From the NCBI GenBank assembly GCA_038841535.1, contig JAWBTQ010000016.1:1-13946 (forward strand): a stretch of DNA of 13,946 bases. Reading direction: 5' to 3'. The notes beneath the pieces are model-generated. The model worked only from the letters and a program-made list of their open reading frames with translations, searched no databases and had not been told where the DNA came from. Shown piece after piece: positions 1 through 13,946 of the stretch. Both the position numbers and the translations under genes were made by a program. The stretch is from Sulfolobales archaeon. Lineage in GTDB: Archaea; Thermoproteota; Thermoprotei_A; Sulfolobales; NBVN01. Each line of letters begins with the position of its first letter. The stretch's first letter is position 1.

Positions 1-551
1 TCTACGTAACAGAGTCTAGACCCGGTGGTGAGGGCAAGCTCACAGCGTCTTACTTAGGGAGGAGGGGGATCAAGGCACTCTTAGTAGTTGATTCTGCTGT
101 GAGGTACGTTATGAAGAACGTAGATAAGGTGTTAGTGAGTGCCGAAGCTATCGCCGCTAACGGGGCTGTAGTAAACAAGGTCGGGACCTCTGCTCTAGCT
201 CTAGCAGCTAAAGAAGCGAGAGTTAGGGTGTACGTAGTATCCGGTCTCTACAAGTTCGGTACTGAAACAGTCTTTGGGGAGCTCGTAACTATTGAGGAGA
301 TGGATAAGCCCGGCCTCGTGATACCCACCGAGAGAATTGGGGAACTGACCCCTTTATTAGGTAAGAGCCTCTACGTTAGAACTCCACTATACGACGTAAC
401 TCCTCCTGAGTATATAGACGCTATAGTGACAGAAAGAGGGTTGATAGCACCCCAAGCGTCTATCTACCTCGCACGAGAGCTAGTTGGTTGGCCTAAAGCA
501 CATAGAACTCTCGAAGTAATCCTATCCGAGGTGGCCTCCCTGTGGAGGTAG
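1..551 (+). CDS. eIF2B/ribose-1,5-bisphosphate isomerase family paralog, 5' part outside the window; catalytic Asp replaced by Glu
   Basis: The frame is open from base 3 (YVTESRPGGEG...DSAVRY) into the listed ORF, so 99 is not the true start. Family motifs are ESRP, SAEAIAANGAVVNKVGT, YKF and DVTPPEYIDAIVTERG. Confidence 0.9.
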   Translation, partial: YVTESRPGGEGKLTASYLGRRGIKALLVVDSAVRYVMKNVDKVLVSAEAIAANGAVVNKVGTSALALAAKEARVRVYVVSGLYKFGTETVFGELVTIEEMDKPGLVIPTERIGELTPLLGKSLYVRTPLYDVTPPEYIDAIVTERGLIAPQASIYLARELVGWPKAHRTLEVILSEVASLWR

Positions 552-1534
552 CTGGTTGTAGAGTGCCTGACGAAGTTGTCAGAATCAGGGAGGACATTAG
601 GAGCATGAAGATCCGTGGGGCTGGTAACATAGCGAGGAATGGGGCATTAGCTCTAGCTGTAGCCGCAGAGAGGTTCTGCGGTGAAGATTTAGAGGAGTTT
701 TTGAGGTACATGAAGGCTGTTGCCGACTTCGTCCGTTCTGCTAGACCTACAGCAGTCTCACTACCTAACTCCGTATCCTACGTTATGAGTAGGCTTGAAA
801 AGAGTAATCCACCGTCTGTGGAGGAAGCTAGAGAAGTGGTTGTGAGAGCGGCTCGAGAATTCGTTAAATACTCAGAAAACGCTGTGAAAGTCATTGCTCA
901 GCTAGGTGCGAAAAGAATCGAGAAAGGAGATACCATCATGACTCACTGCCACAGTACTGCGTCAGTAGCTGTAATCCTGGAAGCCCACAAACAAGGGAGA
1001 GTAGCAAGAGTCTTCGTTAAAGAGACGAGACCCGCGCTTCAGGGGCTAATAACGGCTAGAGAGCTGGCTAAGGAAGGCGTTGAAGTCGTGCTAATACCTG
1101 ATTCAGCTGTAAGGTACTACATGAAGAAAGTAGATAAGGTCGTTGTCGGTGCTGATGCTATAGCAGCTAATGGGGCTGTAGTAAACAAGATAGGGACTTC
1201 TCTCGTTGCTCTAGCAGCCAAGGAGGCGAGAGCTAGAGTATACGTTGCTAGTGAGTCATACAAGTTCAGTCCGTTCACAATTATTGGAGAACTAGTCCCC
1301 ATAGAGATGAGAGACCCTACTGAGGTAGTAGATCAGGAGTGGCTTAATGAAAACCAGAACGTTCAAGTACTCAACCCAGTATTCGATGTAACACCACCAG
1401 AGTATGTGGACGCTATCATCACAGAGATCGGAGTCATCCCACCTCAAGCGGCTATACTAATACTGGTGGAAGAATACGGAATAACACCGCTGACTGTTGA
1501 ACACTACCCCGCTCTTCACCCCGACGCCGATTAA
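542..1534 (+). CDS. Ribose-1,5-bisphosphate isomerase (R15Pi, e2b2 type)
   Basis: Motifs MKIRGA, RPTAVSL, THCHS (Cys136), ETRP, GADAI (Asp205), NKIGT and NPVFDVTP. The Cys-Asp spacing of 69 aa equals that of the Thermococcus kodakarensis catalytic pair C133/D202. RBS GAGGTG at 528-533; overlaps the upstream gene by 10 nt. Confidence 0.92.
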   Translation: MEVAGCRVPDEVVRIREDIRSMKIRGAGNIARNGALALAVAAERFCGEDLEEFLRYMKAVADFVRSARPTAVSLPNSVSYVMSRLEKSNPPSVEEAREVVVRAAREFVKYSENAVKVIAQLGAKRIEKGDTIMTHCHSTASVAVILEAHKQGRVARVFVKETRPALQGLITARELAKEGVEVVLIPDSAVRYYMKKVDKVVVGADAIAANGAVVNKIGTSLVALAAKEARARVYVASESYKFSPFTIIGELVPIEMRDPTEVVDQEWLNENQNVQVLNPVFDVTPPEYVDAIITEIGVIPPQAAILILVEEYGITPLTVEHYPALHPDAD

Positions 1535-1778
1535 GGTTAGTGGCACTATGACTACCTCCTCTTAATGTTCTATGAGGGGATACACGAAGTCCGGCCTCAT
1601 TCCTATTCATCCGCATACTTAAGTCTGAGGCGACTCGCTGTAGCCATCAACCTTATGAGCTTCCCAGTGGGGCAACGTTGTAAGTCGCGAGTAACTCAAA
1701 AGCGCTGAAGACCTTGGCAAGCTGTAGAGCAACACATATATGCTGGAGGTGTGTTAGTACTCTTAAGAGGTGGTGCTA

Positions 1779-2678
1779 GTGATAGTGCTGGGAGGGTCTG
1801 AGGGAGCGCATGTAGGCTTTGAACTGTCTAAACTGATAGGGGCAAGGTACCATGACGTCGAGGTGAAAGAGTTTCCAGATGGGGAGCTTTATGTTAGGAT
1901 CCCGGTAGATCTGAGTGGTTTAGACGTTGTCTACGTGAACTCTCTAGCTAAGCGCCCGAACGAGCTTCTTGTAGAGACTGTTCTCACTCTAGAGACCATA
2001 GCGGACGTAGGAGCTAGAACCATACACGCCGTGCTGACTTACATCCCATACGCAAGGCAGGACACCAGGTTTAAACCTGGTGAAGCCGTTAGTGCTCTAG
2101 TAATAGCAAAGCATCTGAAGTCGCTGCGAATAGACCGATTGTATACTTTCGACTTACACTTACACAGATTCAGAGACCCGAGGCACCTCTTCGGCGATAA
2201 CTTTGTAAACCTTACGGCAGTTAGAGACCTCGTTAGGTACATTAGCGCGTCCCACAAGCTGAGAAACTGCGTTATCGTAGGTCCCGACGAAGAGTCAGAA
2301 CAGTGGGCTAAAGTAGCATCAGAAGAGCTCGGGGGTCTTCCGTACACAGTCATGGAGAAAAAGAGGATTAGTGCCTCAGAGGTCGTAGTAGAGCCGCGAA
2401 ACCCCGATATCGTTGCTGGGAGATCGGCGATAGTGGTAGACGACATCATAAGTACGGGTGGCACCATAGTGGAGACAGTTAGAGTACTGAGGAACTTGGG
2501 GGTAAGAGAAGTCTACGTTGCTGTAACTCACGCCATACTTGCCGGCAGAGCACTCAGTAAGTTAACCCAACTTGAGCTAGAGGATCTCGTGGCATCAGAC
2601 ACAGTATTGAGTCCGATAAGTAAAGTACGTACAGCTCCGATAATAGCTAGGTCTTTCCTAAACCCGATTAGCCCTTGA
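1779..2678 (+). CDS. prs: Ribose-phosphate diphosphokinase (PRPP synthetase) family protein, atypical subfamily
   Basis: Motifs FPDGE, PYARQD..FKPGE and the PRPP-binding loop VVDDIISTGGT. The ORF opens at 1770. GTG 1779 (MIVLGGS) is preferred because GAGGTG at 1767-1772 lies 6 nt upstream. Confidence 0.9.
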   Translation: MIVLGGSEGAHVGFELSKLIGARYHDVEVKEFPDGELYVRIPVDLSGLDVVYVNSLAKRPNELLVETVLTLETIADVGARTIHAVLTYIPYARQDTRFKPGEAVSALVIAKHLKSLRIDRLYTFDLHLHRFRDPRHLFGDNFVNLTAVRDLVRYISASHKLRNCVIVGPDEESEQWAKVASEELGGLPYTVMEKKRISASEVVVEPRNPDIVAGRSAIVVDDIISTGGTIVETVRVLRNLGVREVYVAVTHAILAGRALSKLTQLELEDLVASDTVLSPISKVRTAPIIARSFLNPISP

Positions 2679-2778
2679 GACACGATCTCTTGAGGAGGAA
2701 GCTCCGGTAGCTCGTTGCTAAGTCCACTAGACTATTTCGTTTTTATGCTTGTTTATTCAGATGCTTAAGGGTTTTGTA

Positions 2779-3618
2779 GTGAGTTTAGGTAAGGTCTACG
2801 TCGGAACTGCGGGAATACCTAACTCTACAAAGCGGAAGAACACTATTGAGGGAATAAAGAGAGTTGCCGAGCTAGGCCTCAGCGCTATGGAGCTAGAGTT
2901 CGTCAGAGGCATTAACTTAACCCCAATAACTGCGGCTAGAGCGCGCGAGGTATCGAAAGAACTCGGCGTTGTCTTAACTGCTCACGCTCCCTACTACATC
3001 AACCTCCTCTCGGACAGGATAGACGTGAGGAAGGCATCCATTCAGAGAATAGTGGAGTCAGCTAAGGTCGCTTACATGGCTGGAGCATGGTCTGTAGTAT
3101 TTCACTCCGGGTACTACGGAAAGTGTGATCCCGAAGAAGCTGTCAGAATAGTTAGAGACTCCCTCAAGCAAGTAGTGAAGACTCTCGCAGACATGGGCGT
3201 GAAGGTGTGGGTGAGGCCTGAAACAATGGGTGGTGTGGCTGAAGTCGGTTCATTAAGTGAAGTTCTGTCTATAGTTGAGGGTGTAGAGATGGCTCTACCC
3301 GCTATAGACTTCGCACATATCTACGCTAGAAGCATCGGTAGGATAAACGACTTAGAAAGCTTTAGAGAAATTCTTGTAGAAGTAGAAAAACGTCTTGGCT
3401 CTGAAGCTCTAAGGAACTCCCACATACACATGTCCGGTATAACGTACGGAGAAAGAGGTGAGAGAGCCCACCTAAACTTCGATGAATCGGAATTCAACTG
3501 GGCTGCGGCTGTGGGAGTACTTAAGGAGTTCGATGTCGGAGGAGTAGTGATATCTGAGTCGCCAAACCTAGAGGAAGATGCCTTAAAGATCCTTAGCCTC
3601 CTGAGAGTAAGTAAGTAG
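2779..3618 (+). CDS. Archaeal endonuclease IV (AP endonuclease, TIM barrel)
   Basis: Metal-ligand motifs HAPYYINL, VVFH, PETMG, IDFAH, HIH, H(LNF) and ISESP. The start is uncertain (2749, 2761 or 2779). TTTATTCA at 2752-2759 fits a leaderless start at 2779. Confidence 0.85.
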   Translation: MSLGKVYVGTAGIPNSTKRKNTIEGIKRVAELGLSAMELEFVRGINLTPITAARAREVSKELGVVLTAHAPYYINLLSDRIDVRKASIQRIVESAKVAYMAGAWSVVFHSGYYGKCDPEEAVRIVRDSLKQVVKTLADMGVKVWVRPETMGGVAEVGSLSEVLSIVEGVEMALPAIDFAHIYARSIGRINDLESFREILVEVEKRLGSEALRNSHIHMSGITYGERGERAHLNFDESEFNWAAAVGVLKEFDVGGVVISESPNLEEDALKILSLLRVSK

Positions 3619-3690
3619 TAGCTAACGCTAGTGGATACCTTGACGTAGTGTCAGGAGTTCGCTAGTTGCCTTCCCCTTCCCCAGATCTAG

Positions 3691-5325
3691 CTAGCTCTGG
3701 TCTTCGTGTACTTCGATCTCGCTAACTACCGATAGGTCCTTTCTCCTCTTCGCATGTAGCTCCTCGGCCGTTCCCTTAGTCACTATTTCGTAGAGCCTAG
3801 CAACCTTCCCCGGGCTAGGCCTGAGGAGACGGCCGAGCCTCTGCACGAACTGCCTAGGCGAGGATGTTCCGGCAACTAGAATACCGACAGTTGCGTCGGG
3901 TATGTTCAATCCCTCATCTCCTACAGTAGTAACGACTAGGATCCCTTCTCGCCTCTCTCGGAAAGCTTTCAGGATCTCTTCACGTTTAAGTCCTTCCGTA
4001 TCCCCAGTTAAAAGCATCCCACCGACTTCTTCAGCTATCTTTCGGGCTAAGTCTACGTAATGTGCGAAGACTATGATCTTAGCTCCCCGCTCTTTTTCAA
4101 CTACCTCCCTTACCTTCTCCAGCTTAGAGTCACTCATTTGAACTATCTTCCTCATCTCCGTAACTAGCTTGAGAGCCTCTATAGCTCTTCGGTCACCCCT
4201 TCTAGCAGCCTCTAGAACATCCTCGAACTTAGCTCCATTCACTAGGTCTCTGTACTTCTTCTTTAGCTCCAGGTACTTCTTTCTCTCGTCAGGCTTGAGA
4301 CCTACCTTCAAGGTTATGACCTCGTACTGAGCTAAGTAGCCTGCTTCAGCAAGTTCTGACGGTAGCTTATAGTAGACTACACCCCCCATCAGTGGAAATA
4401 GCTCTACGTGCTTACCGTCCTCTCTATAGGGAGTAGCCGACAAACCCAGCCTCTTAGGTGCTGGAGACCCTAGCGCTATCGCCTTAAACTTCTCTGCGGG
4501 TAGGTGGTGTACTTCATCAACCACTAGGAGGCCGAAGTGAGGAGCCAGCCTGCTTATGTACCTAAAGGCAGACTGGTACGTAGTTATAGTAATAGGGGCC
4601 AACCTCTTCTCCTCTGAGTAGTAAAAACCGATCATCTCCGGAGGTACGTCCGTTGCCTTGAGGAACTCTTCGTACCACTGCTTAACGTGGTCTTTAGTTA
4701 TAACGACTATTAGCGCTCTCTCCCTAGTTTCCGCTATTGCCGCTATAGCGACTAGAGTCTTCCCCGAGCCCGTTGGGAGCGCTACCACACCCCTGTGAGA
4801 GTTCTTAATCCACCTATCTACAGCCTCCCTCTGGTAGTCCCTTAAGGCAACTTTTAGAGAGACCTGCGTTCCCAGCTCAACTCTAGTTAAAAAACCAGTT
4901 CTATCAACTACTCTAATCCCGTACTTCTTTAGTGCCTCTACGAAGGAGCTGTAGTAGTACGGGTGGAGGACGAAGAGCTTGCCCTCACGCCTATACTTCA
5001 ACTTGAACTCAGAGAAAGCCTCCCTTAAGTCCTCCCCTAGAAAGAAGTTGAACTTTATGCACACGTAGTTCGTACAGTACGTTAGGTCAGCAACCTTACT
5101 CGACGGAAAGAGATCCCTTAGTAGTGCCTCGTCAAATTCCGCCCCAACATCGTTTAGTAGAGTAACTATTTCCTCTACGTCAACTTTCTCTTTAGCCACC
5201 TTACTCTTACTAACTCTAAAGATTGAGCAACCACCTTCACGACCTACGTAGTCTGTGTACTTAATTAGCTCCTGAAATTCTTCCTCAGATAGCCATCTAC
5301 ACACACGTACTTCTAGAGATTTCAA
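3691..5325 (-). CDS. xpb: XPB/Rad25-type superfamily 2 DNA helicase
   Basis: Q motif LRDYQ, Walker A LPTGSGKT, DEVHH, LSATPYREDG (XPB RED motif), DEGLNIP and QRLGRLLR. TTG start preceded by GGAGTGG. Confidence 0.88.
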   Translation of the reverse strand: MKSLEVRVCRWLSEEEFQELIKYTDYVGREGGCSIFRVSKSKVAKEKVDVEEIVTLLNDVGAEFDEALLRDLFPSSKVADLTYCTNYVCIKFNFFLGEDLREAFSEFKLKYRREGKLFVLHPYYYSSFVEALKKYGIRVVDRTGFLTRVELGTQVSLKVALRDYQREAVDRWIKNSHRGVVALPTGSGKTLVAIAAIAETRERALIVVITKDHVKQWYEEFLKATDVPPEMIGFYYSEEKRLAPITITTYQSAFRYISRLAPHFGLLVVDEVHHLPAEKFKAIALGSPAPKRLGLSATPYREDGKHVELFPLMGGVVYYKLPSELAEAGYLAQYEVITLKVGLKPDERKKYLELKKKYRDLVNGAKFEDVLEAARRGDRRAIEALKLVTEMRKIVQMSDSKLEKVREVVEKERGAKIIVFAHYVDLARKIAEEVGGMLLTGDTEGLKREEILKAFRERREGILVVTTVGDEGLNIPDATVGILVAGTSSPRQFVQRLGRLLRPSPGKVARLYEIVTKGTAEELHAKRRKDLSVVSEIEVHEDQS

Positions 5326-5363
5326 CAGCTATACCACTCCACCATGTGAGTGTGAACTATTAT

Positions 5364-5711
5364 TTAAACACTCAACTCGTCGACACCGTCTCTCTTAGCT
5401 ACAATGTCGCCGTCACTCAACAGTACTAGCGGTTCTTCTATCTCGACTTCAGTACTTGATTCAACAGATGTCCTGAGTACTAGAGTCAGTATGAGGTAGT
5501 CACCAACTTTACTAACCTTTACTTTCCTAACCACACTGCGAGTTAGAATGTCGGACACAACATCGCTCTTTCTCGCTGATTGAAGGGAACTAGTAACGCC
5601 CTTAGTCATGCTTAGAACTCTTAGAGATAGCGGTTTATCTAGACTGACTAAAACGACTAGAGTGGCGAGTACCACTATGGTAGCTATTACTACATACTCC
5701 AGCTCCAACAC
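5364..5711 (-). CDS. Hypothetical protein with one N-terminal hydrophobic helix
   Basis: 115-aa ORF with hydrophobic YVVIATIVVLATLVVLVSL. It is co-oriented with xpb (38-nt gap), and a TTTAAA box lies about 30 nt upstream (about 5739-5744). Confidence 0.7.
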   Translation of the reverse strand: MLELEYVVIATIVVLATLVVLVSLDKPLSLRVLSMTKGVTSSLQSARKSDVVSDILTRSVVRKVKVSKVGDYLILTLVLRTSVESSTEVEIEEPLVLLSDGDIVAKRDGVDELSV

Positions 5712-5984
5712 CTACTCAGATGCTACGAGAGCCGTTTCTTTAAAGCAGTAAGTTAAATCGCTACTTAGAAGCAGTTCCTCAATAGAACACTGCGGTAACT
5801 ACTAAGGTGATGTTCTACGAGGTTTTACAGGTTTCTACCGTGTATAACCCGAGAATCAATTAGAAGTAGCTGTGGTCTAGCGCAGCCATTAGTGTTATAG
5901 AGAAGGTGGCCCTAGCTCCAGTGGCGAGAAGTTCGAGAGTCTTGGAGCCAGAACGTTGTCAAAGGGCTTTCGTTTGAGTTGAGC

Positions 5985-6038
5985 GTAGAAAAGCTTATAA
6001 GGCCATACTAATTAATCAATACGAACCAAGTCAGGTGA
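5985..6038 (+). promoter_or_regulatory. Putative BRE/TATA promoter and RBS of alba
   Basis: Purine-rich GTAGAAAAG followed by CTTATAA (5994-6000), and GGTGA at 6034-6038 before ATG 6045. Confidence 0.55.
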
Positions 6039-6044
6039 TAAGAA

Positions 6045-6341
6045 ATGAGTGGTCCAACACCCGCAGCTACAAACGTAGTCCTAGTAGGTAAGAAGCCTGT
6101 AATGAACTACGTAATGGCGACACTAACTCTGTTACACCAGGGAGTTCCTGAGATAGTGATAAAGGCTAGGGGAAGAGCCATCAGTAAGGCCGTAGATGCT
6201 GTTGAAATCGTGAGGAGTAGGTTCCTACCCGATAGAGTTGAGGTAAAGGACATTAGGATCGGGAGCCAGGTACTAACCACTAGCGACGGCAGGCAGTCTA
6301 GGGTCTCAACTATCGAGATCATCTTAGCGAAGAAGGGCTAA
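6045..6341 (+). CDS. albA: Chromatin protein Alba (Sac10b family)
   Basis: [33 protein letters not shown] and IGSQVL...[10 protein letters not shown]; 98 aa. Confidence 0.98.
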
Positions 6342-6384
6342 GAACTTCGTAATAACGCAGGCGAAAGCTAAGCAGTGTTTTTAG

Positions 6385-7062
6385 ATGAAGATAAAGGAGT
6401 TAAAACTCCCCGCACTTCAGGTAGCGCTTGACTTCACTTCTCTTAATAGAGCTATCGAAGTCTTAAGTAGAATTAGCGATTTGGATATAGGTATAGTCGA
6501 AGTCGGGACGCCGCTGATCAAGTCAGAGGGAGCGAGGTCTATATCGAGAGTTAGGGAGCTCGCTGGTGGAAAACCGGTACTTGCTGATACTAAGACCGTC
6601 GATGTGGGTGCTCTTGAAGCAGAGATAGCCATTAGAGCAGGTGCCGACTTTCTGACAGCTATAGCATCAGCTGACGATGCCGTTATAGAGTCTGCTGCTA
6701 GAGCTGCTTGGGAACTCGGTGGTGATCTAGTAGTAGACTTCATAGGGTTTAGAGGGGATGTACTAAGCAGAGCTAGAGAGCTAAGTGAGGTCGGCATATC
6801 GTCAGTAAACATACACGTAGGTATAGACGTCCAGAGATCACTCGGGCTTACGGCTACCGACATGCGCATCTTAGTGAAGCGGCTCTCAGCTGAGTTGAGT
6901 GGTTTAGTTATATCTGTGAGCGGTGGAATCAAACCAGAAGACATCCCGCAGCTCATAGATGCGGGAGCACAGATAGTCGTTGTTGGAGGAGCTATAACTA
7001 GGTCATCTGACCCGAGGGAAGCGGCAGTAAAGTGCCTAAAAGCGCTCAAGCGTATCAGATAG
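6385..7062 (+). CDS. 3-hexulose-6-phosphate synthase (OMPDC/HUMPS barrel), stand-alone
   Basis: LQVALD, EVGTPLIKSEG, ADTKTVDVG, HVGIDVQ, SGGIK and VVGGAIT; no fused PHI domain. Confidence 0.85.
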   Translation: MKIKELKLPALQVALDFTSLNRAIEVLSRISDLDIGIVEVGTPLIKSEGARSISRVRELAGGKPVLADTKTVDVGALEAEIAIRAGADFLTAIASADDAVIESAARAAWELGGDLVVDFIGFRGDVLSRARELSEVGISSVNIHVGIDVQRSLGLTATDMRILVKRLSAELSGLVISVSGGIKPEDIPQLIDAGAQIVVVGGAITRSSDPREAAVKCLKALKRIR

Positions 7063-7207
7063 CAAACCAGTCCCACGGCTTACCTCAAGTTCTTGGATTA
7101 TGTTGGTGGTAGTTAAACTCTTCGATGTATGATGGTGTTTAACTCATTATTGCCGTAGACTTAGCTACAAATATATTTCTAGAACTGAATCTAGTAGTGT
7201 GTTAACC

Positions 7208-7531
7208 ATGGCTAAGCTGAGTAAACTAATACTGGTAACAGCTGACCACCACCCGCTTCACAAGTACTTTAAGGAATTAGCTGAGGAGTTGAGTAAGAAG
7301 TATGGAGTTCCCCTAGATGTTAGAGTAGAGGACTACCTATTTCTGATAGAGCATGGAGATACAGACGAGTACGGAATGGCGTGGTTGCCTCAGCTGCTCG
7401 CAGAGCTAGATTCTGGAGAGATAGTCAAGGTCTTAACGAAGCCCGTCCTAGACTCCATGGGGAACATAAGCAAAGACAACGATCTAGGTACTTCAATAGT
7501 GAATATAGAGAAAGCCACTACCGGAAAGTAG
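7208..7531 (+). CDS. Hypothetical protein, probable thioredoxin-like fold without cysteines
   Basis: ORF 7199/7208-7531 with AAATATATTT upstream (7169-7178). The pattern LILVTADHHPLHK..KELAEELSKKYGV..GMAWLPQLL..DSGEIV parallels the Trx/Grx pattern. Confidence 0.75.
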   Translation: MAKLSKLILVTADHHPLHKYFKELAEELSKKYGVPLDVRVEDYLFLIEHGDTDEYGMAWLPQLLAELDSGEIVKVLTKPVLDSMGNISKDNDLGTSIVNIEKATTGK

Positions 7532-7550
7532 AGTAAAAGTTTTTATGAAA
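7532..7550. terminator. Possible bidirectional oligo-T terminator
   Basis: 19-nt spacer between convergent genes, AGTAAAAGTTTTTATGAAA, with T runs on both strands. Confidence 0.35.
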
Positions 7551-8090
7551 CTACGCAGTGTACTTAGTGCCAAATTTGTTTAGGTAGGCTATCTCCTCTA
7601 GCGGTCTTCTCGGCCTAGGCTGCGGCTTTTCCGCCGGGTAGCCGAGTGCTACTATAGCTATGGGGACGTAGTTCTCGGGGAGGTCGAGAAGCTTTTGAAT
7701 ATCCTCAACGTTTCTTAGAGTCTGTAGCCAGACTGTACCTAAACCTAGAGCGTGTGCTGCGAACATAACGTACATAGTTGCGTTAGCGCAGTCGACTTGG
7801 TAGGAAACTGGGGAGAGGTTCTTATCGCAAGCTACGACTATTCCCATAGGTGCCCTAAGGAGTGGTGACGAACCTGAGTGTATGCTGGCTAGCTTATCCT
7901 TTAACTCCCTATCCTTTACTACTACGAAGGTCCAGGGCTGCCTGTTACCAGCACTTGGAGCAAACCTAGCTATATCGACTATCTTTAGCACTAAGTCGTC
8001 TGGTACTGGGTCCGGCTTAAACTGCCTTATGCTCCTCCTAGTGAGGAGAAACTCTATTATGTCTTCACTCCTGCAACTCAAGGTAATCAC
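7551..8090 (-). CDS. Nitroreductase family flavoprotein
   Basis: RRSIRQF, APSAGNRQPWTFVVV, AHALGLGTVW and ALGYP. Confidence 0.93.
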   Translation of the reverse strand: MITLSCRSEDIIEFLLTRRSIRQFKPDPVPDDLVLKIVDIARFAPSAGNRQPWTFVVVKDRELKDKLASIHSGSSPLLRAPMGIVVACDKNLSPVSYQVDCANATMYVMFAAHALGLGTVWLQTLRNVEDIQKLLDLPENYVPIAIVALGYPAEKPQPRPRRPLEEIAYLNKFGTKYTA

Positions 8091-8152
8091 AAACTAGTTT
8101 ACACAGGCAAGTATTTAAAGTTATTAAAGCCTATCTATGTATTGATGGAAAA
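8091..8152. promoter_or_regulatory. Compact divergent promoter pair (nitroreductase / DHS-like gene)
   Basis: Back-to-back TATA-like boxes: TTTAAATA on the minus strand at 8112-8119 and TTATTAAA on the plus strand at 8121-8128, each about 25 nt from its start codon. Confidence 0.55.
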
Positions 8153-9187
8153 ATGGAGGTCAACCCATACCTCAAAGATAAACTTGAGTCAGTAGACGTT
8201 AAGTCCAGGAAGCTAAGTGAACTCCTGCGGTCTATGTCGAAAACAGCCTATCAAGGTAGAAAGCTTGGAGAGACCTACGAAGTCTTGCTGAAGATGTTTG
8301 AAGACCCTAAAGTCACGGTTTTCATGGGGCTAGCTGGGTCTATGGCCCCGGGGGGTATGTGGAAGATAGTGAAGTGGTTTATCGATGAGGGCTTTGTGGA
8401 TGTCCTAGTGTCTACTGGAGCCAACATCTCCGAGGACATCGTCGAAGCTATGGGGTTCAGCTACTACAGAGGGTCTCCGTGCGTAGACGACTACGACCTC
8501 CTTAAGCACAAGATTGACCGATTCTACGATGTTTACGTCTCCGAACTCGACTACCGAGCTATGGAGAACTTGATCTTAGAGTTCATTAGGGCTTTACCTA
8601 GCGGTACTTACTCTACAGCCGAGTTTCTATACCTCTTCGGGAGGTTTCTCAGTGAGAGGGGGATAGACTCCATAGTTTCGTCTGCCTATAAGTGGGGTGT
8701 CCCAGTATTCTCTCCAGCACTCGTAGACTCAGGCTACGGTATAGCTGCCGTCCTTGCTTTAAGGGAGGGAAAGAGAGTCGTAATCGACATGGTAAAGGAT
8801 TTCGACCAGCTAGTTAAATTAGCCGAGCACTCCCAAGAGTCTGCTGTGGTATATATTGGAGGGGGTGTACCGAAAGACACAATAAACTTGGTTACAGTCG
8901 CTCAAACGTTGATTGCTGAGAAGTCGGGTAAGCACGACTACTACAAGCCACACAGGCTAGCTGTTCAAATAACTACGGACTTACCTCAGTGGGGAGGTCT
9001 CTCCGGTGCTACCCTCGAGGAAGCAGTGAGTTGGGGGAAGACATCTCCGTGGGGCTATAAAGCTACGGTACACGTTGATGCCACTATAGCTCTACCGATA
9101 ATAGCTAACGCACTCTCTGAAGAAGTCACTACTAAAAGACCTAGAAAGAAACTCATAGAGCTGATAATACCAGAGCTGGGTCGGTAA
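8153..9187 (+). CDS. Deoxyhypusine synthase family protein (DHS-like)
   Basis: VSTGAN, FSPALVDS, IGGGVPK, GGLSGATLEEAVSWGK (catalytic Lys at 9038-9040) and DATIALP. Confidence 0.92.
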   Translation: MEVNPYLKDKLESVDVKSRKLSELLRSMSKTAYQGRKLGETYEVLLKMFEDPKVTVFMGLAGSMAPGGMWKIVKWFIDEGFVDVLVSTGANISEDIVEAMGFSYYRGSPCVDDYDLLKHKIDRFYDVYVSELDYRAMENLILEFIRALPSGTYSTAEFLYLFGRFLSERGIDSIVSSAYKWGVPVFSPALVDSGYGIAAVLALREGKRVVIDMVKDFDQLVKLAEHSQESAVVYIGGGVPKDTINLVTVAQTLIAEKSGKHDYYKPHRLAVQITTDLPQWGGLSGATLEEAVSWGKTSPWGYKATVHVDATIALPIIANALSEEVTTKRPRKKLIELIIPELGR

Positions 9188-9479
9188 CTGAGCAGCAAGT
9201 GATATATAGTTTTTAAGTACTCACTATTGCGGGTTTAGCTCCTACATATGCCCATATAGGCCAATACCTCAACTACATTCCTGTGCGAGTAGGTCTTTAG
9301 TTAGGTCATCCCTTGAAAGCAACTGTGTTGGACATCGACACGCTTGCTTTAGCATGCCGACCGATCATCAGAGTCCATCAGTTAGTTGCGTACAGTGTTA
9401 ACAGATGTGGAAACGATAGGTGAAACCGCCTTAACAGCTCTAGCCGATGCCGGATGTTGGGAGAGGTTTATTAAGAGAT

Positions 9480-10643
9480 CTACGATGCCACGATAGATGC
9501 GACAATGTGGCCCATTATAGAGAGCACGATTACGTACTCTATGCCGAAGTATAGAGCCAAGAAACCGCCTACAATAGACCCTACAGCACTCCCCAGTTCT
9601 ACCGCCACTCCGTAGAGAAACGTTCTCCGGCCGGAGGCAGAAGTTATGTATGCGTTATAACTGGAGGTATTGAATACGTTGAATAGTATTGCCGTTGTGA
9701 GTAGGTAGGCTACGGCCTGCTCTACTCCAGCAATAAACGTAACTAGCGGGATTACGAGCGCCCTAGCTAGACCTGATAACAGGGTGGTGAGCCTACCTTT
9801 AGAAACTCTCGAAATAGCTACTAAAGCTAGTGCTGAAGCCAGAGAGGATATTCCATAGACCAGCAAGGTCTGTTCTCTACCTATGTAGTTAGAGATCAGC
9901 CTCGGGACTATGATGAACAGCGCATCAGAGCTAGTAACTAAAATAAAAGCTCCTAGTAGAGGCTTGTAGCTAGCGACCTCCTTTTCGACGCTCCACCTAA
10001 GCTCTAAGGCTCTCGAAGCAGTTAGACCCGTATCCACGACATCAGGGAGTATGGAGGTAAACTTCATGTATGTATGCACTCTATCTAACTGCTTAGCTAG
10101 TCTAAACAGAGATCTCTCTACGGAGAGGACGACCGGTGGTAGAGTTATTGCGTACACAGCCGACACCGACAGTGTGAGTAATAGCAGCGATGTAGGAGAT
10201 AGTAGCTCAAGGTAAACCAGTACGAGTAGTAGACCTCTCACTGAGAGGGTTACGTAGTTAAAGAAGTAGTTGTACTTCGACCAGGCCTCGTAGTTCACGT
10301 ACTCAAGTAATGTGACGTTAACAGCCGAGCGACCTAAAGACGCCGAGATCGAGTGTAGTAAGGAGTAACCCACTGCAACCTCTACAACCCCCCTAGAGTT
10401 TACAGTAGTGAGGATAGCTAGACAAAGCAAGGCGGATGAGGCTAGAGCAGCTGTTTTGTTAAGTCCCTCCTCTACGAACCTCCCGAAGAAGATGTTAGAA
10501 GCAACGAAGACGATGCTCCATAAGGAGCTAGCTAAACCTAGCGTGAGTGGGTCGGCCTTAAGGAACAGCGCTAGGTAAAGAAACAACCACGTATCTGTGA
10601 GAGACAGAAACGCAAGGTATATTGATGATGCCGCTAGCCACAC
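9480..10643 (-). CDS. Multi-pass membrane protein, probable divergent MFS transporter
   Basis: 387 aa with about 11-12 hydrophobic segments. There is a degenerate motif A (FFGRFVEEGLNK), a central hydrophilic loop and a C-terminal GSAVGSIVGG helix. Confidence 0.7.
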   Translation of the reverse strand: MWLAASSIYLAFLSLTDTWLFLYLALFLKADPLTLGLASSLWSIVFVASNIFFGRFVEEGLNKTAALASSALLCLAILTTVNSRGVVEVAVGYSLLHSISASLGRSAVNVTLLEYVNYEAWSKYNYFFNYVTLSVRGLLLVLVYLELLSPTSLLLLTLSVSAVYAITLPPVVLSVERSLFRLAKQLDRVHTYMKFTSILPDVVDTGLTASRALELRWSVEKEVASYKPLLGAFILVTSSDALFIIVPRLISNYIGREQTLLVYGISSLASALALVAISRVSKGRLTTLLSGLARALVIPLVTFIAGVEQAVAYLLTTAILFNVFNTSSYNAYITSASGRRTFLYGVAVELGSAVGSIVGGFLALYFGIEYVIVLSIMGHIVASIVAS

Positions 10644-10730
10644 TCGCGACCCTATCGAGCTCTTTCCTTTACTTCGAATTTAAGCTAGGAAGCACTTACC
10701 GCAGTATAAATAAGGTTCATACACTTAGGC
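10644..10730. promoter_or_regulatory. Divergent promoter region (MFS / PAP2)
   Basis: TATAAATA at 10705-10712 before the 10731 start, and TTAAAT on the minus strand near 10679-10683. Confidence 0.45.
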
Positions 10731-11627
10731 TTGGTGCGTGAGTTGAACTCTGCTCACGCGATTTCACGGTATCTGGGGCCTGCTTGCTACTCTATTGCCG
10801 CCGTTATCGCAGGGATACTGACTGCCGCAATACTACTCGACAGTGTACCTCTGTGGTCACTCCTCTCAGCACTCGGAGAAGAGTTTGCCTACATAGGGCT
10901 CACTCTAGTGCTAATGTATCTAGCCAGTCCTGAGTTAGGGATCACGGTACTAGTAGCTATACTTTTCACCGGCTCATTAAACGTATTCTTGAAGTACTTA
11001 CTCGATATTCCACGTCCTCCCCCAGAGCTGTGGAGGGCTCCAGCGTCGGGTCCGGGTCTACCGAGTGGGCACGCACAGGTCTCTACTACGTTTTGGTCTA
11101 GCGTGTCTATTGCTGTGAGGAGAAGGTGCGTTGTAGCTCTATCAGCAGTAACCGTGCTATCGATATCATCTTCAAGAATAGGTCTCAGAGTTCACGGCGT
11201 CTATGATGTACTGGCGGGTGTGGCAGTAGGACTCGCTGTTGGCTATGTATCTACGTTACTACATAAGCGTCTTGGAGTAGAGAGAGTGGCTCTATTACTA
11301 GCTCTTGCTAGTGCGGCACTATCCTATAGAAACATGGTCTTAAACTACGAGAGCAGTGTCTCAGCTTCTCTCTTAGGGCTTGGAGTAGGGATAACTTTGT
11401 CGACTCCCTTGCTAAAGAAGTCCATTCGGACTCTCAAGGTCCTCACTCAACTGGAAAAGTATTTATTACTGCTCCTCGTTATCGCTTTCTCAGTAGCAGT
11501 AACGGTTTTCACGAGAAACACCTCACTAGGGCTTAGGGTCGCAGCGCATACTGTAGTGGGCTTCCTCGTAGTTGCCAGCCCTATAATCAAGAGCGCGGTA
11601 AGGCAGTCCTACCGCACGGTAAGTTAG
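10731..11627 (+). CDS. PAP2 family integral membrane phosphatase
   Basis: All three PAP2 motifs are intact: KYLLDIPRP (KX6RP), PSGH and SRIGLRVHGVYD (SRX5HX3D). Many TM helices. Confidence 0.92.
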   Translation: MVRELNSAHAISRYLGPACYSIAAVIAGILTAAILLDSVPLWSLLSALGEEFAYIGLTLVLMYLASPELGITVLVAILFTGSLNVFLKYLLDIPRPPPELWRAPASGPGLPSGHAQVSTTFWSSVSIAVRRRCVVALSAVTVLSISSSRIGLRVHGVYDVLAGVAVGLAVGYVSTLLHKRLGVERVALLLALASAALSYRNMVLNYESSVSASLLGLGVGITLSTPLLKKSIRTLKVLTQLEKYLLLLLVIAFSVAVTVFTRNTSLGLRVAAHTVVGFLVVASPIIKSAVRQSYRTVS

Positions 11628-11660
11628 AGTAAGCTATTTAATCCGGCCGGGTCATACTTA

Positions 11661-12101
11661 GTGTGTGATGAGTATATGATAGTAAACACACGTGACTTAC
11701 CGGAGTATAGGGTGCCCAAGCCCTACGAGAGGTCGATGAGAGTAGTTCTCGACCCGAGATTGAGTAACTACGATAAAGCCACGGTCCTATCGGTTACGAT
11801 AGAACCTGGTAGTACTACGGGGCTTCACCAGCACACATCCGATGAGATAATATATGTGGTGTCTGGTAAAGGAACTTCCGTTCTAGTTGATGGAGATAAG
11901 ACCACGGAGTCTGAAGTGAGAGAAGGGTACTTAGTGCTCGCGAGAGCAGGAGTTAAGCACGAGATGAGGAATACGAGTAGTGAGCCACTCAAACTGCACT
12001 GCGTGTTCATTCCCCCACTCCCAGTAGAAGGTTACTTTGCAGAAGCACTTAAGGCAGCTACTAGTAGGAGTCAAGCTATCGCTCGGGAGAAAACCAGTTG
12101 A
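11661..12101 (+). CDS. Cupin domain protein
   Basis: GLHQHTSDEIIYVVSGKG and ARAGVKHEMRN give a 3-His/1-Glu site. The start may be ATG 11676. TATTTAAT at 11635-11642. Confidence 0.9.
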   Translation: MCDEYMIVNTRDLPEYRVPKPYERSMRVVLDPRLSNYDKATVLSVTIEPGSTTGLHQHTSDEIIYVVSGKGTSVLVDGDKTTESEVREGYLVLARAGVKHEMRNTSSEPLKLHCVFIPPLPVEGYFAEALKAATSRSQAIAREKTS

Positions 12102-12177
12102 TTCCTAGTCAGTCGAGTCAACGCCGAGAACTACGGTGGTGAACTAAGTAACTAGTTGGTTTACTGAGTCTACTTCA

Positions 12178-12438
12178 TTACTCTTTACGCAAAACTATCC
12201 TTAAGTACTGGTAATTCTCGAGGAATTCTATGCCCGTCAAGCGAGAAATCTCCGTGCTTAGTTCCGTCACTATTACCTCACCCCACTTGGTTAGCTTCTC
12301 CGCTATGTTGGCAGGTATTTCGCTTAAACTATAGACACCTCTAGATACGCACCTAGAAACCACAGCGTACACGTGTCTATACGTCGAGAGCTCAGGTATG
12401 TCGGCACTACACACATACACTTCAGCTCTCAGAAGCAA
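12178..12438 (-). CDS. Hypothetical protein, last gene of the hydrogenase operon
   Basis: 86-aa ORF overlapping the end of the small-subunit gene, with GAGGTGA directly upstream. No recognisable motif. Confidence 0.65.
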   Translation of the reverse strand: MLLRAEVYVCSADIPELSTYRHVYAVVSRCVSRGVYSLSEIPANIAEKLTKWGEVIVTELSTEISRLTGIEFLENYQYLRIVLRKE

Positions 12439-12931
12439 TCACCTCAGCCTTCTTCGACTTTTGCTCTACTAGCCCCAGAAGTAGAAGCATTCCGTATATT
12501 ATGGCCTCAGGTCTCACCGGGCATCCGGGTACGTAGACCACTCTATCTATTTCTACGCCGTTATCACGGAGTAGTTCCTCAAGCTTCTTAAACCCCCCTA
12601 GCGTTGAGTACGTGTCCCACCAGATACCTCCCCCAACACCGCACGATCCTAGGACTAGGATGAGCCTAGGTCTCGGCATGGCCTTAATGGTCTTTACGAC
12701 CTTCGGTAATGACTCCCTAGTTACGGGGCCCGTGAATAGGATGACGTCGGCATGCCTAGGGGAGCCAACCAGCTTTATCCCAAACCTCTCTACATCGAAG
12801 TAGGGAGTCAGAGCGTCTAGAACTTCTATGTCGCAAGCGTTGCAGGAGCCACTATTGAGGTGGTATACCCACACACTCCTCTTAATTGCTCTCAGAGCTT
12901 TAGCTATGTTAACACTACTCACTACCAGCAC
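12422..12931 (-). CDS. Group 4 [NiFe]-hydrogenase small subunit (HycG/HyfI/NuoB-like)
   Basis: SGSCNACDIE, SPRHAD, GSCGVGGG and PGCPVRPE. The start could be GTG 12922. Confidence 0.93.
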   Translation of the reverse strand: MLVVSSVNIAKALRAIKRSVWVYHLNSGSCNACDIEVLDALTPYFDVERFGIKLVGSPRHADVILFTGPVTRESLPKVVKTIKAMPRPRLILVLGSCGVGGGIWWDTYSTLGGFKKLEELLRDNGVEIDRVVYVPGCPVRPEAIIYGMLLLLGLVEQKSKKAEVIASES

Positions 12932-13430
12932 CCAATCTAAGCTTAGCTGCTTTTACGAGCTTCTCCCTCCTGCACTTCGGGCAAACCAGAGTATACTCTT
13001 CAGCTATAGGTGAAGACTTAACTACAGTCCTCAGTTCGGCTTCAGTCCATATGGGTGAACCACATATAGAGCAGCGAGTCAGTCTATGGATCACTCTTGA
13101 CTTAAGATCATCGAGTGAGGCTGAGGAAAGCTCGAACTCCTTAGTTACCTCTATAGCCCCAGCCGGACACACTTCGGCGCACATACCGCAGAAGATGCAC
13201 CTACCCACAAAGTACTCGAGTGTAACCTCCTTTCCAGCAGGCTTAAGGGTTAGAGCATTGGGTGGGCAGACCTTCACACACGCCCCACAGCCCCAACACT
13301 TCGATGGATCTATCTTCACCGCACCTCTAAACTCGGGAGTCAGTAGAGGTGGCTCGTAGGGGTACCTCCTAGTGACCCTCCCAGTCCTTAAGGCTATTTC
13401 GAGGATCTTAGCTATAGACATGTTGAACAC
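12915..13430 (-). CDS. 2x[4Fe-4S] subunit (HycF/HyfH/NuoI-like)
   Basis: CWGCGACVKVCP and CIFCGMCAEVCP, N-terminal TRRYP...FRG, and extra C-terminal CSIC...CPKC. Confidence 0.92.
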   Translation of the reverse strand: MFNMSIAKILEIALRTGRVTRRYPYEPPLLTPEFRGAVKIDPSKCWGCGACVKVCPPNALTLKPAGKEVTLEYFVGRCIFCGMCAEVCPAGAIEVTKEFELSSASLDDLKSRVIHRLTRCSICGSPIWTEAELRTVVKSSPIAEEYTLVCPKCRREKLVKAAKLRLGAGSE

Positions 13431-13431
13431 C

Positions 13432-13946
13432 CTACTTTAGTCGGATAACCCCCATCCTACCAGATTTCACGTCTAGGACGATAGCCCTATCTGTACAGGA
13501 GAAGCAGGGGTCTATACTAGCTATCGTAAGTGGTGCGTCAGCTAGAGGGTTTCCCCTCAGCATTGCTCTCAGCGCAGGTATGTTCTGATATGTTGGTGCT
13601 CGAACTCTCCACCTATACGGCCTGCCGACTCCGGTGATCACGAAGTGTACGTCCTCCCCCCTAGGTGCCTCGATGGCTGCCACAGCCCTCCTACCTGGAG
13701 GTATATCGTACTCTTCGACCATTATACTACCATCTGGAAGTACGTCAATGAGCTGCTTTATTATCTCGATGCTCTCAAAGACCTCGTCAACTCTAACAAG
13801 TAGTCTAGCTAGGTTGTCTCCCTCAGTATACAGTGGAACCTTAAACGACACCCTCCTATAGGCTAAGTACGGATAGTCTTTTCTCACGTCTCTGTAGAGT
13901 CCTGAAGCCCTAGCGACAGGACCTACGACACTGAGGGCTCTAGCTT
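13432..13946 (-). CDS. Group 4 [NiFe]-hydrogenase large subunit, C-terminal part (5' end outside the window)
   Basis: The frame is open to the window edge (ARALSVVGPVARASGLYRDVRKDYPY). Motifs EAPRGE, RVRAPTYQN and the L2 motif DPCFSCTDR, followed by a short tail. Confidence 0.93.
   Translation of the reverse strand, partial: ARALSVVGPVARASGLYRDVRKDYPYLAYRRVSFKVPLYTEGDNLARLLVRVDEVFESIEIIKQLIDVLPDGSIMVEEYDIPPGRRAVAAIEAPRGEDVHFVITGVGRPYRWRVRAPTYQNIPALRAMLRGNPLADAPLTIASIDPCFSCTDRAIVLDVKSGRMGVIRLK

Follow-up and report, generated by a model that had tools for sequence, protein, structure and literature searches.

A second, atypical PRPP synthase-like protein of a Sulfolobales archaeon and its probable tie to the AMP phosphorylase and RuBisCO shunt

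The window analysed here is a stretch of 13,946 nucleotides (nt) from a Sulfolobales archaeon (GenBank assembly GCA_038841535.1, contig JAWBTQ010000016.1, positions 1 to 13,946 of the forward strand). At 1779..2678 it carries a gene for an atypical protein with the fold of the synthases of phosphoribosyl diphosphate (PRPP), located downstream of a gene for a ribose 1,5-bisphosphate (R15P) isomerase. The gene is the second PRPP synthase (Prs) gene of this genome and falls into a clade that is marked by the motifs D-x-H-L-H-R and P-D-(E)-E-(S/A), an archaeal relative of the bacterial PRK07199 group; it is referred to here as the HLHR type. We are confident that it is an accessory, clade-specific Prs tied to the shunt made up of AMP phosphorylase, R15P isomerase and RuBisCO. 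The narrower reading drawn from the sequence comparisons, namely that of a second PRPP synthase isozyme that is dedicated to this shunt and retains canonical chemistry, is held at about even chances.

The encoded protein and its clade

The open reading frame (ORF) spans 1770..2678 on the + strand, with an alternative GTG start at 1770. The GTG at 1779 is likely the start codon, because a GAGGTG stands 6 nt upstream and the database cluster representative P0001 (299 residues, 100% identical to the window protein) begins at the same codon. In the following list, conservation refers to A1, an alignment of 59 diverse motif-bearing proteins with a mean column identity of 35%, and residue numbers are those of P0001.

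1767..1772 (+), Shine-Dalgarno-like GAGGTG, 6 nt before GTG 1779 (from sequence reading; putative function)
1779..2678 (+), coding sequence of the atypical HLHR-type PRPP-synthase-fold protein, stop codon included (from the ORF list; 299 residues)
1872..1886 (+), FPDGE, residues 32-36; P33 and D34 invariant, F32 and E36 at least 90% conserved
2049..2063 (+), YARQD, residues 91-95, in a flexible loop; R93 invariant, Q94 and D95 at least 90% conserved
2151..2168 (+), DLHLHR; first His conserved (nucleotide beta-phosphate/Mg), second His and Arg clade-specific
2280..2309 (+), GPDEESEQWA; the conserved PD, then an acidic E-E-S-E-Q-W replacing the usual x-G-(G/A)-x-x-(R/F)
2358..2366 (+), K194-K195-R196, in a flexible loop; K194 and R196 invariant, aligned with the K-x-R of solved enzymes
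2439..2465 (+), DDIISTGGT, the ribose-5-phosphate binding loop; D221, D222 and T229 invariant

Membership of the PRPP synthase superfamily is clear from TIGR01251 (232.8 bits, cut-off 113). In Pfam, the protein matches PF13793 (73.1 bits, cut-off 25), PF00156 and PF14572 (42.2 bits, cut-off 27), and the cut-offs of PF13793 and PF14572 are passed. Its best solved relative is the Prs of M. jannaschii (1u9y; E 3.3e-52), with which it aligns end to end. An AlphaFold2 model built with 30 homologues has a mean pLDDT of 90.4, and the top Foldseek matches of this model are all PRPP synthases (1u9y, 5mp7, 4twb and 3mbi; probability 1.00, TM 0.81-0.88). As modelled, the protein is composed of two phosphoribosyltransferase (PRT)-type domains and is folded like the solved PRPP synthases.

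The recognised catalytic and ligand motifs of PRPP synthases (FPDGE, YARQD, DxH, PD, KxR and DDIISTGGT) are all kept in the window protein and are invariant or at least 90% conserved in A1. We take FPDGE to be the nucleotide-binding motif, and a catalytic role is presumed for K194-K195-R196. The invariant columns of A1 are P33, D34, Y88, R93, H127, H129, R130, P169, D170, E172, W176, K194, R196, D221, D222, T229 and H251, among which H129, R130, E172 and W176 appear as added, clade-specific invariants; in the wider clade W176 is not universal, with some members reading GPDIESEKLV, GPDIESEQYV or GPDDEAIEFA. At the aligned positions, the solved class III enzymes have NPHETH and APDKGALEFAK (1u9y) or APDRGALDRAR (4twb), and the (A/S)PDxG(A/G) segment of class III Prs gives way to GPDEESEQWA in the window protein. 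The first His of DLHLHR aligns with His138 of the M. smegmatis PRPP synthase and H129 with its Asp140; in that enzyme, His138 binds the nucleotide beta-phosphate, while Asp140 corresponds to the allosteric-site residue Ser132 of the human enzyme (PMC5395218). The clade-specific residues sit beside the two metal/phosphate ligands, and either regulation or the handling of phosphate and Mg has probably changed. The location of H129 at the class I allosteric position would fit changed regulation at least as well as a changed reaction.

The original prediction had read DLHLHR at 2151-2168 and GPDEESEQWA at 2280-2309; these positions are exact and both motifs are near-invariant among the 120 best homologues (48-100% identical). 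D.HLHR and GPDEE[AS]xQW[AV] are each present in 116 of them, the latter as GPDEEAEQWA in 88 and as GPDEESEQWA in 17, and in the remaining four the crude motif pattern matched another place in the protein. Among the 150 top matches from 1.84 billion scanned representatives, 69 contain both H[LR]HR and PDxE[SA]xxW according to motif patterns. A FastTree phylogeny of 150 rows places the 76 rows that carry both motifs, without exception, in one 87-row clade with a local support of 23%, which is enclosed in a 102-row clade with 86% support. Bacterial proteins of the PRK07199 type lie inside the same clade as the window protein, and the canonical Prs of this genome belongs to a separate 25-row clade with 98% support.

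With regard to curated profiles, the window protein misses both the archaeal class III equivalog NF002095/PRK00934 (241.2 bits, cut-off 296) and NF005537, the profile of PRK07199 (219.9 bits, cut-off 322). The combination of DLHLHR and GPDEESEQWA, a working and non-curated definition for a PRK07199-like group, is present in it. The suggested placement in a PRK07199-like Prs subfamily therefore holds for the signatures and for the tree clade, but the profile cut-off is missed. The equation of these signatures with bacterial PRK07199 was confirmed, as NF005537 was passed by all nine motif-bearing representatives of bacterial type (333-403 bits), two of which have named bacterial sources; seven representatives of archaeal type scored 252-320.5 bits. 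Named members of the motif-bearing bacterial clusters are Pseudoxanthomonas, Lysobacter, Luteimonas and Thiohalocapsa.

The assembly of this archaeon (G000) comprises 1.56 Mb in 40 contigs and is 83.8% complete. On another contig it contains a canonical class III prs (G000:C11:15058-15930, with DAHNPH and APDQGATDRA), in line with the original prediction that the window gene does not encode the housekeeping Prs. A canonical-type match is present in all 41 relatives compared (29-38% identical to the query), and an HLHR-type paralogue (at least 45% identity) in 10 of the 41, i.e., in six of the ten genomes of the genus and in four others.

Genomic linkage to the R15P pathway

That this motif type is linked to genes of the R15P pathway in archaea, as had been proposed, is supported by gene neighbourhood as well as by co-occurrence. 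Eighty archaeal loci with relatives of the gene were taken; both motifs are found in 76, one (L087) is canonical, and the remaining three are truncated or escaped the crude pattern. Counting the window, a gene of the e2b2 family of R15P isomerases is present in 22 of 81 loci (by blastp; L069 weak), in both gene orders and across several phyla (Thermofilaceae, Nitrososphaeria, Bathyarchaeia, Methanomethylicia, Baldrarchaeota and others). The neighbour clusters within 4 kb comprise e2b2 at 23 loci, an ABC ATPase at 16, and a 444-residue family and a PfkB kinase at 12 each, with the 444-residue family being the RuBisCO large chain (PF00016, 291.5 bits; one representative per cluster was scanned). 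In most Desulfurococcaceae loci, the HLHR-type gene does not adjoin pathway genes. As a control, coordinates were compared by hand in the 41 relatives: only in one genome (G010) are canonical prs and the e2b2 pair no more than 5 kb apart, versus adjacency of the HLHR-type paralogue in six of its ten carriers.

Co-occurrence was assessed in 301 genomes spread evenly over the phylum, which were searched with the A1 profile and whose tables were compared by hand. The matches separate into a high group of at least 309 bits (46 matches in 45 genomes with 11 family codes) and a remainder of at most 276 bits. At the border between the two, HLHR and PDxES are present in each of the five lowest-scoring high-group matches and are both absent from ten of the top low-group matches; nine further loci were also checked. 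AMP phosphorylase (TIGR03327) was found in 129 of the 301 genomes, i.e., in 45 of 45 carriers of the HLHR type versus 84 of 256 non-carriers, and RuBisCO in 111, i.e., in all 44 carriers other than G000 versus 67 of 256 non-carriers; these counts are descriptive. At least six genomes (G113, G027, G038, G302, G261 and G266) have RuBisCO without AMP phosphorylase, and the HLHR type is found in none of them. Many genomes of one family (f20) have the gene order prs-like, isomerase, RuBisCO, AMP phosphorylase, with the prs-like, RuBisCO and AMP phosphorylase genes within about 5 kb on one strand (e.g., in G054, at 316115-316984, 318525-319340 and 319421-320905, respectively).

The substrate side is illustrated by one locus (L020), where the HLHR-type gene is two genes away from a ribokinase gene (TIGR02152, 361.7 bits, cut-off 299.65), together with RbsA/RbsC-like transporter genes. 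Because ribokinase and ribose-type ABC transporter genes are found nearby, ribose 5-phosphate (R5P) is the likely substrate of the HLHR-type enzyme. In the genome of the window itself, ribokinase (TIGR02152) gave no match above the cut-off. AMP phosphorylase is encoded on another contig (C6:56067-57533; TIGR03327, 565.1 bits, cut-off 535). For the adenine PRT, the bacterial type (TIGR01090) was not found in this genome (best match 29 bits), and an archaeal-type adenine-PRT-like gene is present on contig C7 at 171.8 bits.

For the bacterial relatives, a metagenome scan yielded 80 loci of the PRK07199 type (L111-L190), 59 of them with more than 1500 nt of upstream sequence. A homologue of the AMP phosphorylase of this genome is located directly upstream on the same strand in 56 of these 59, with a 4-nt overlap in 33; this agrees with the earlier claim that the bacterial type adjoins archaeal-type AMP/thymidine phosphorylase homologues. 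Of these partners, three were compared with profiles: all are above the cut-offs of TIGR02645 and NF003338, and on the AMP_phos profile they reach 437-491 bits (cut-off 535). An e2b2 gene was found in none of the 80 loci, nor was any other conserved R15P-consuming candidate present among the neighbours. A beta-CASP metallo-beta-lactamase (MBL) RNase gene is a neighbour in 38 of the 80 (one representative per cluster was scanned).

Several side observations concern these relatives. The recurrent module in the bacterial-type loci is a beta-CASP MBL RNase, followed by the TIGR02645-type phosphorylase and then the PRK07199-type Prs; genes for a universal stress protein, a P-type ATPase, a phosphoketolase and ATP-cone/Mrr-like proteins also recur. 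The three annotations of the RNase, phosphorylase and Prs module recur in Bradyrhizobium diazoefficiens, where bll3115 is an MBL-fold hydrolase, bll3116 a ribose-phosphate pyrophosphokinase and bll3117 a member of the thymidine phosphorylase family; the accessible part of one report lists these three genes among those induced by microoxia (PMC6515984). In two Woesearchaeota genomes (G332 and G333; loci L085 and L088), a class I-like Prs (DLHVxQVQ/SPDAGGAARA) is accompanied by an HLHR-type Prs (MDPHLHR/GPDEES(Y/H)KWA).

Neighbouring genes in the window

The remaining features of the window are the following; four genes are regarded as housekeeping.

3..551 (+), second e2b2 paralogue, C-terminal 182 residues, cut by the contig start, with SAE for GAD (TIGR00511, 172.4 bits, partial)
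542..1534 (+), R15P isomerase of the e2b2 family, catalytic-looking copy with THCHS and GAD (TIGR00511, 391.9 bits, cut-off 314.1)
1535..1778 (+), spacer of 244 nt between the isomerase gene and the prs-like gene (from sequence reading)
2749..3618 (+), xylose-isomerase-like TIM-barrel protein, 71 nt downstream of the prs-like gene (PF01261, 114 bits; weak endonuclease IV similarity)
3691..5325 (-), XPB/Rad25-type helicase (library scans; housekeeping)
6045..6341 (+), Alba (library scans; housekeeping)
6385..7062 (+), 3-hexulose-6-phosphate-synthase-like protein, 3.7 kb downstream (TIGR03128, 170.7 bits, cut-off 200 missed; PF00215)
7551..8090 (-), nitroreductase-family protein (library scans; housekeeping)
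8153..9187 (+), deoxyhypusine synthase (NF002006, 458.7 bits, cut-off 434; housekeeping)
12422..13944 (-), three ORFs resembling subunits of membrane-bound [NiFe] hydrogenase or complex-I-like enzymes (by eye only)

The e2b2 genes form a conserved tandem pair in the window, in five syntenic loci (L009-L013) and in L049, L052, L059 and L071, with the downstream copy containing THC(H/N)S and GAD. Upstream copies have T(H/Y/V/I)SYS or CYG(H/Y)S without the Cys and, in Thermoproteota, AE in place of AD; the full-length orthologues of the upstream copy in the syntenic loci read THSYS where the catalytic copy has THCHS. By analogy to the Thermococcus kodakarensis enzyme, this Cys and Asp are taken to be the catalytic residues, and by its sequence the upstream copy looks non-catalytic or altered. 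Tandem isomerase genes have been reported "one gene upstream" of bathyarchaeal RuBisCO.

A scan for sigma-70-type promoters and terminators, which does not cover archaeal promoters, gave no match in the spacer 1535..1778 nor near the prs-like gene. DNA contigs of other sequencing runs show single-base indels in the spacer at 1601 and 1698. One metatranscriptome library contains a 495-nt contig that matches 1787-2278 with 16 differences, and further contigs match 66-675 and 2793-3599; such contigs are no proof of transcription, and uncovered parts carry no information. A 32-nt stretch (2430..2461) that encodes the DDIISTGGT loop also matches a different contig of 9751 nt (run X5) with two differences, and the same loose ends occur in three DNA runs; the match is presumably to another PRT-family gene of the community.

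Downstream, the TIM-barrel gene keeps its position in the five syntenic loci and is found in this position at no other locus. The 3-hexulose-6-phosphate-synthase-like protein could, judging from its profile matches, be an enzyme of the ribulose-monophosphate route and supply pentose phosphates. The three hydrogenase-like ORFs putatively encode a small-subunit-like protein, a 4Fe-4S ferredoxin-like protein and the C-terminus of a large subunit.

Proposed role, alternatives and significance

In the proposed scheme, the HLHR-type enzyme would convert R5P and ATP to PRPP and AMP. PRPP and adenine would then be combined to AMP by adenine phosphoribosyltransferase, and AMP phosphorylase would cleave AMP with phosphate to adenine and R15P. 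The isomerase encoded just upstream would turn R15P into ribulose 1,5-bisphosphate (RuBP), from which RuBisCO would form two molecules of 3-phosphoglycerate with CO2. On balance, R5P would become R15P with adenine acting catalytically, so that R5P from ribokinase or from the ribulose-monophosphate route would be burned through RuBisCO; the enzyme would serve this shunt rather than general nucleotide synthesis. The published route from R5P via PRPP, AMP and R15P to RuBP is feasible in this genome, because AMP phosphorylase and the adenine-PRT-like gene are both present.

That the HLHR type still makes PRPP is suggested by genomes in which it appears to be the sole Prs. It is the only Prs found in four of four Hadesarchaea metagenome-assembled genomes (MAGs; 0.8-1.0 Mb), and no other full-length Prs was found in a Baldrarchaeota MAG (G336), while in G323 (94% complete) both Prs copies are of the HLHR type. 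For this reason, PRPP synthesis has probably been retained. In the Hadesarchaea, the gene is followed by a TIGR01177-family methyltransferase gene that is homologous (31% identity, E 2e-41) to the gene after the canonical prs of the genome studied here. The only Prs of G305 (97% complete) is a variant with HLHR and PDDEAIEFA. Together with the conserved motifs, canonical PRPP synthesis appears more likely than changed chemistry.

The original prediction had inferred a changed reaction or an unusual phosphoryl donor, which found no support here; all recognised catalytic motifs are kept. Nevertheless, a change of chemistry on the same scaffold, by which R15P is made or used directly and which in essence is the idea of the original prediction, has to be weighed, although we regard it as doubtful. 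Candidate reactions are R5P + ATP <-> R15P + ADP, i.e., an R5P 1-kinase, or R15P + ATP <-> PRPP + ADP, in analogy to PhnN, either of which would provide a missing direct link of the pentose-phosphate or PRPP pools to the R15P pool. Such a change would account for the fact that both alternative genomic partners handle R15P, namely the isomerase in archaea and the coupled TIGR02645-type phosphorylase in the PRK07199-type loci (56 of 59, 33 with the 4-nt overlap). The latter loci lack e2b2 genes (0 of 80) and any other conserved R15P consumer, and the beta-CASP RNase in 38 of 80 points to breakdown of nucleoside monophosphates (NMPs). Furthermore, the invariant H129, R130 and E172 are immediate neighbours of the His and Asp by which the nucleotide phosphates and Mg are bound, a ribokinase neighbour would suit an R5P 1-kinase equally well as a PRPP synthase, and PRPS-like folds can switch substrate, as described for phage Adps, which pyrophosphorylates ADP-ribose (PMC13586617, accessible part). 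However, this precedent altered the acceptor and not the transferred group, and ATP would have to be shifted in the site for its gamma-phosphate to be transferred in place of the beta,gamma-diphosphate, whereas all motifs for diphosphoryl transfer from ATP with AMP leaving are kept. Moreover, the sole-Prs cases (Hadesarchaea, G336 and G323) would then call for another route to PRPP or a bifunctional enzyme. In a broader form, the HLHR-type enzymes including PRK07199 would not, or not only, be PRPP synthases and would interconvert R15P with R5P or PRPP while spending or gaining ATP; we consider this unlikely to a similar degree.

Two further alternatives leave R15P chemistry aside. An ordinary redundant PRPP synthase isozyme, differing in regulation or heat stability and placed beside the isomerase gene by incident, would agree with the intact catalytic motifs, with H129 at the class I allosteric-site position and with the Desulfurococcaceae loci that lie apart from pathway genes; in this genus, the 244-nt spacer and the gene's own Shine-Dalgarno-like site do not require co-transcription with the isomerase. 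We judge it improbable, since the type is confined to genomes that have AMP phosphorylase and (G000 aside) RuBisCO, across 11 family codes; it is repeatedly found next to e2b2 or RuBisCO, in either gene order and in several phyla, canonical prs is so placed in only one of 41 genomes, and the PRK07199-type relatives are translationally coupled to an AMP-phosphorylase homologue. The other alternative is a non-catalytic, Prs-like regulatory subunit that modulates canonical Prs or AMP phosphorylase in the manner of the eukaryotic PRPP-synthase-associated proteins. Regulatory Prs paralogues do exist, PAP39/41 are among the PDB matches (2ji4 and 2c4k), and 4-nt overlaps such as those in the PRK07199-type loci may often accompany complex formation. 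Yet no catalytic residue is lost, the HLHR type is the sole Prs in several MAGs, and PAP-like insertions are absent from the 299-residue protein, which aligns end to end with 1u9y, making this explanation very improbable indeed.

A number of points weigh against a dedicated isozyme with canonical chemistry. The AMP-phosphorylase-type partner of the PRK07199-type loci and the R15P isomerase beside the gene in archaea have R15P in common and not PRPP. The beta-CASP RNase neighbour suggests NMP breakdown, a process that offers no obvious task for a PRPP synthase and lacks an enzyme to consume R15P. Next to the phosphate/Mg ligands are the invariant H129, R130 and E172, which could place ATP differently. 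The HLHR type is also optional, with 7 of 13 RuBisCO-positive genomes of family f10 being without it, and the shunt does not need it, because many genomes positive for both RuBisCO and AMP phosphorylase lack it. Kin among the genomes are not independent, which inflates the support from the co-occurrence counts, and the sole-Prs cases rest on incomplete MAGs. No assay of any member of the HLHR clade was found in the literature searches. In the genome of the window, the adenine-PRT-like gene stays below its cut-off of 184 bits, and no RuBisCO (PF00016) match was obtained in the 83.8% complete assembly. With respect to the latter, the five syntenic loci L009-L013 have a divergently oriented gene of the RuBisCO cluster immediately upstream of the e2b2 pair (by Pfam for the L012 representative, by blastp clustering for the others), at exactly the place where the window contig starts. 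Termination of the contig at this point, just before the RuBisCO gene, is the likely explanation for its absence from the assembly; DNA contigs of other runs reach 148-328 nt beyond the contig start.

Among known systems, the class III Prs of M. jannaschii (1u9y/1u9z) and Sulfolobus solfataricus (4twb) resemble the window protein in the two-domain fold, length, FPDGE, YARQD, KxR and DDIISTGGT, but 1u9y differs in having NPHETH and APDKGALEFAK in place of DLHLHR and GPDEESEQWA. PRK07199 (NF005537) shares with it D-P-H-L-H-R, G-P-D-x-E-S-x-Q-W, the tree clade and the AMP/thymidine-phosphorylase-type partner family. While PRK07199-type genes directly follow a TIGR02645-type phosphorylase gene, the window gene is preceded by the two e2b2 paralogues, with AMP phosphorylase on another contig. 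Phage Adps, a PRPS-like ADP-ribose pyrophosphokinase, has remodelled donor-site loops on the PRPS scaffold and a non-canonical role; in contrast to the HLHR type, its acceptor is ADP-ribose and it acts in a phage counter-defence pathway, and the likeness considered here is that of the family (PMC13586617, accessible part). If R15P chemistry applied, E. coli PhnN (R15P + ATP -> PRPP + ADP) would be a functional analogue (PMC9700705, accessible part). A 2026 preprint, in its accessible part, distinguishes twelve PRPS classes, gives them no functions and mentions only III and XII for Archaea. The fold of PhnN is unrelated to that of PRPP synthases.

The NMP shunt, or pentose bisphosphate pathway, of Thermococcus kodakarensis consists of AMP phosphorylase, R15P isomerase and form III RuBisCO, and the same three enzymes co-occur and often cluster with the HLHR type. 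In the accessible part of its description no PRPP synthase is among the listed enzymes (PMC9700705), whereas here a dedicated Prs clade would be a fourth, optional component, present in 44 of 111 RuBisCO-positive genomes. PRPP-fed routes to RuBP have been proposed for methanogens (Finn and Tabita 2004, as cited in PMC5113843) and, with co-localised genes, for pSL12-like marine Thaumarchaeota (bioRxiv 10.1101/2019.12.22.886556). As far as the accessible parts of these sources go, they share the sequence from R5P to PRPP, then via AMP or by direct dephosphorylation to R15P and RuBP, but treat Prs as an ordinary enzyme and single out no distinct clade, signature or strict co-occurrence with AMP phosphorylase. 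With a PRPP-fed RuBisCO route thus in print, the "undescribed branch" of the original prediction is overstated unless the chemistry differs. In the literature searched, no paper was found that names the signature of this clade or its strict pairing with AMP phosphorylase, nor one that uses the term "PRK07199".

The conversion of R5P to R15P is a weak point of the archaeal RuBisCO (pentose bisphosphate) pathway, for which published schemes invoke an ordinary PRPP synthase with salvage enzymes, or else the breakdown of PRPP by heat or by Nudix enzymes. A sequence-defined Prs clade that is found only together with AMP phosphorylase in the sampled genomes, and is often clustered with genes for R15P isomerase, RuBisCO and ribose uptake, provides a concrete enzyme candidate for this step. 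A result obtained in archaea or bacteria would explain a widespread operon for which the literature searches brought up no assay. Should R15P interconversion prove true, the HLHR type would be the missing enzymatic connection between NMP phosphorolysis of the AMP-phosphorylase type and the pentose-phosphate and PRPP pools, feeding or draining the archaeal RuBisCO shunt, and bacteria would possess a two- or three-gene, stress-induced module for RNA-to-pentose salvage (beta-CASP RNase, NMP phosphorylase and Prs-like protein). Hence, non-canonical chemistry would mean a new reaction on a textbook scaffold, and with canonical chemistry the gene would be a marker for ribose-fed RuBisCO shunts.

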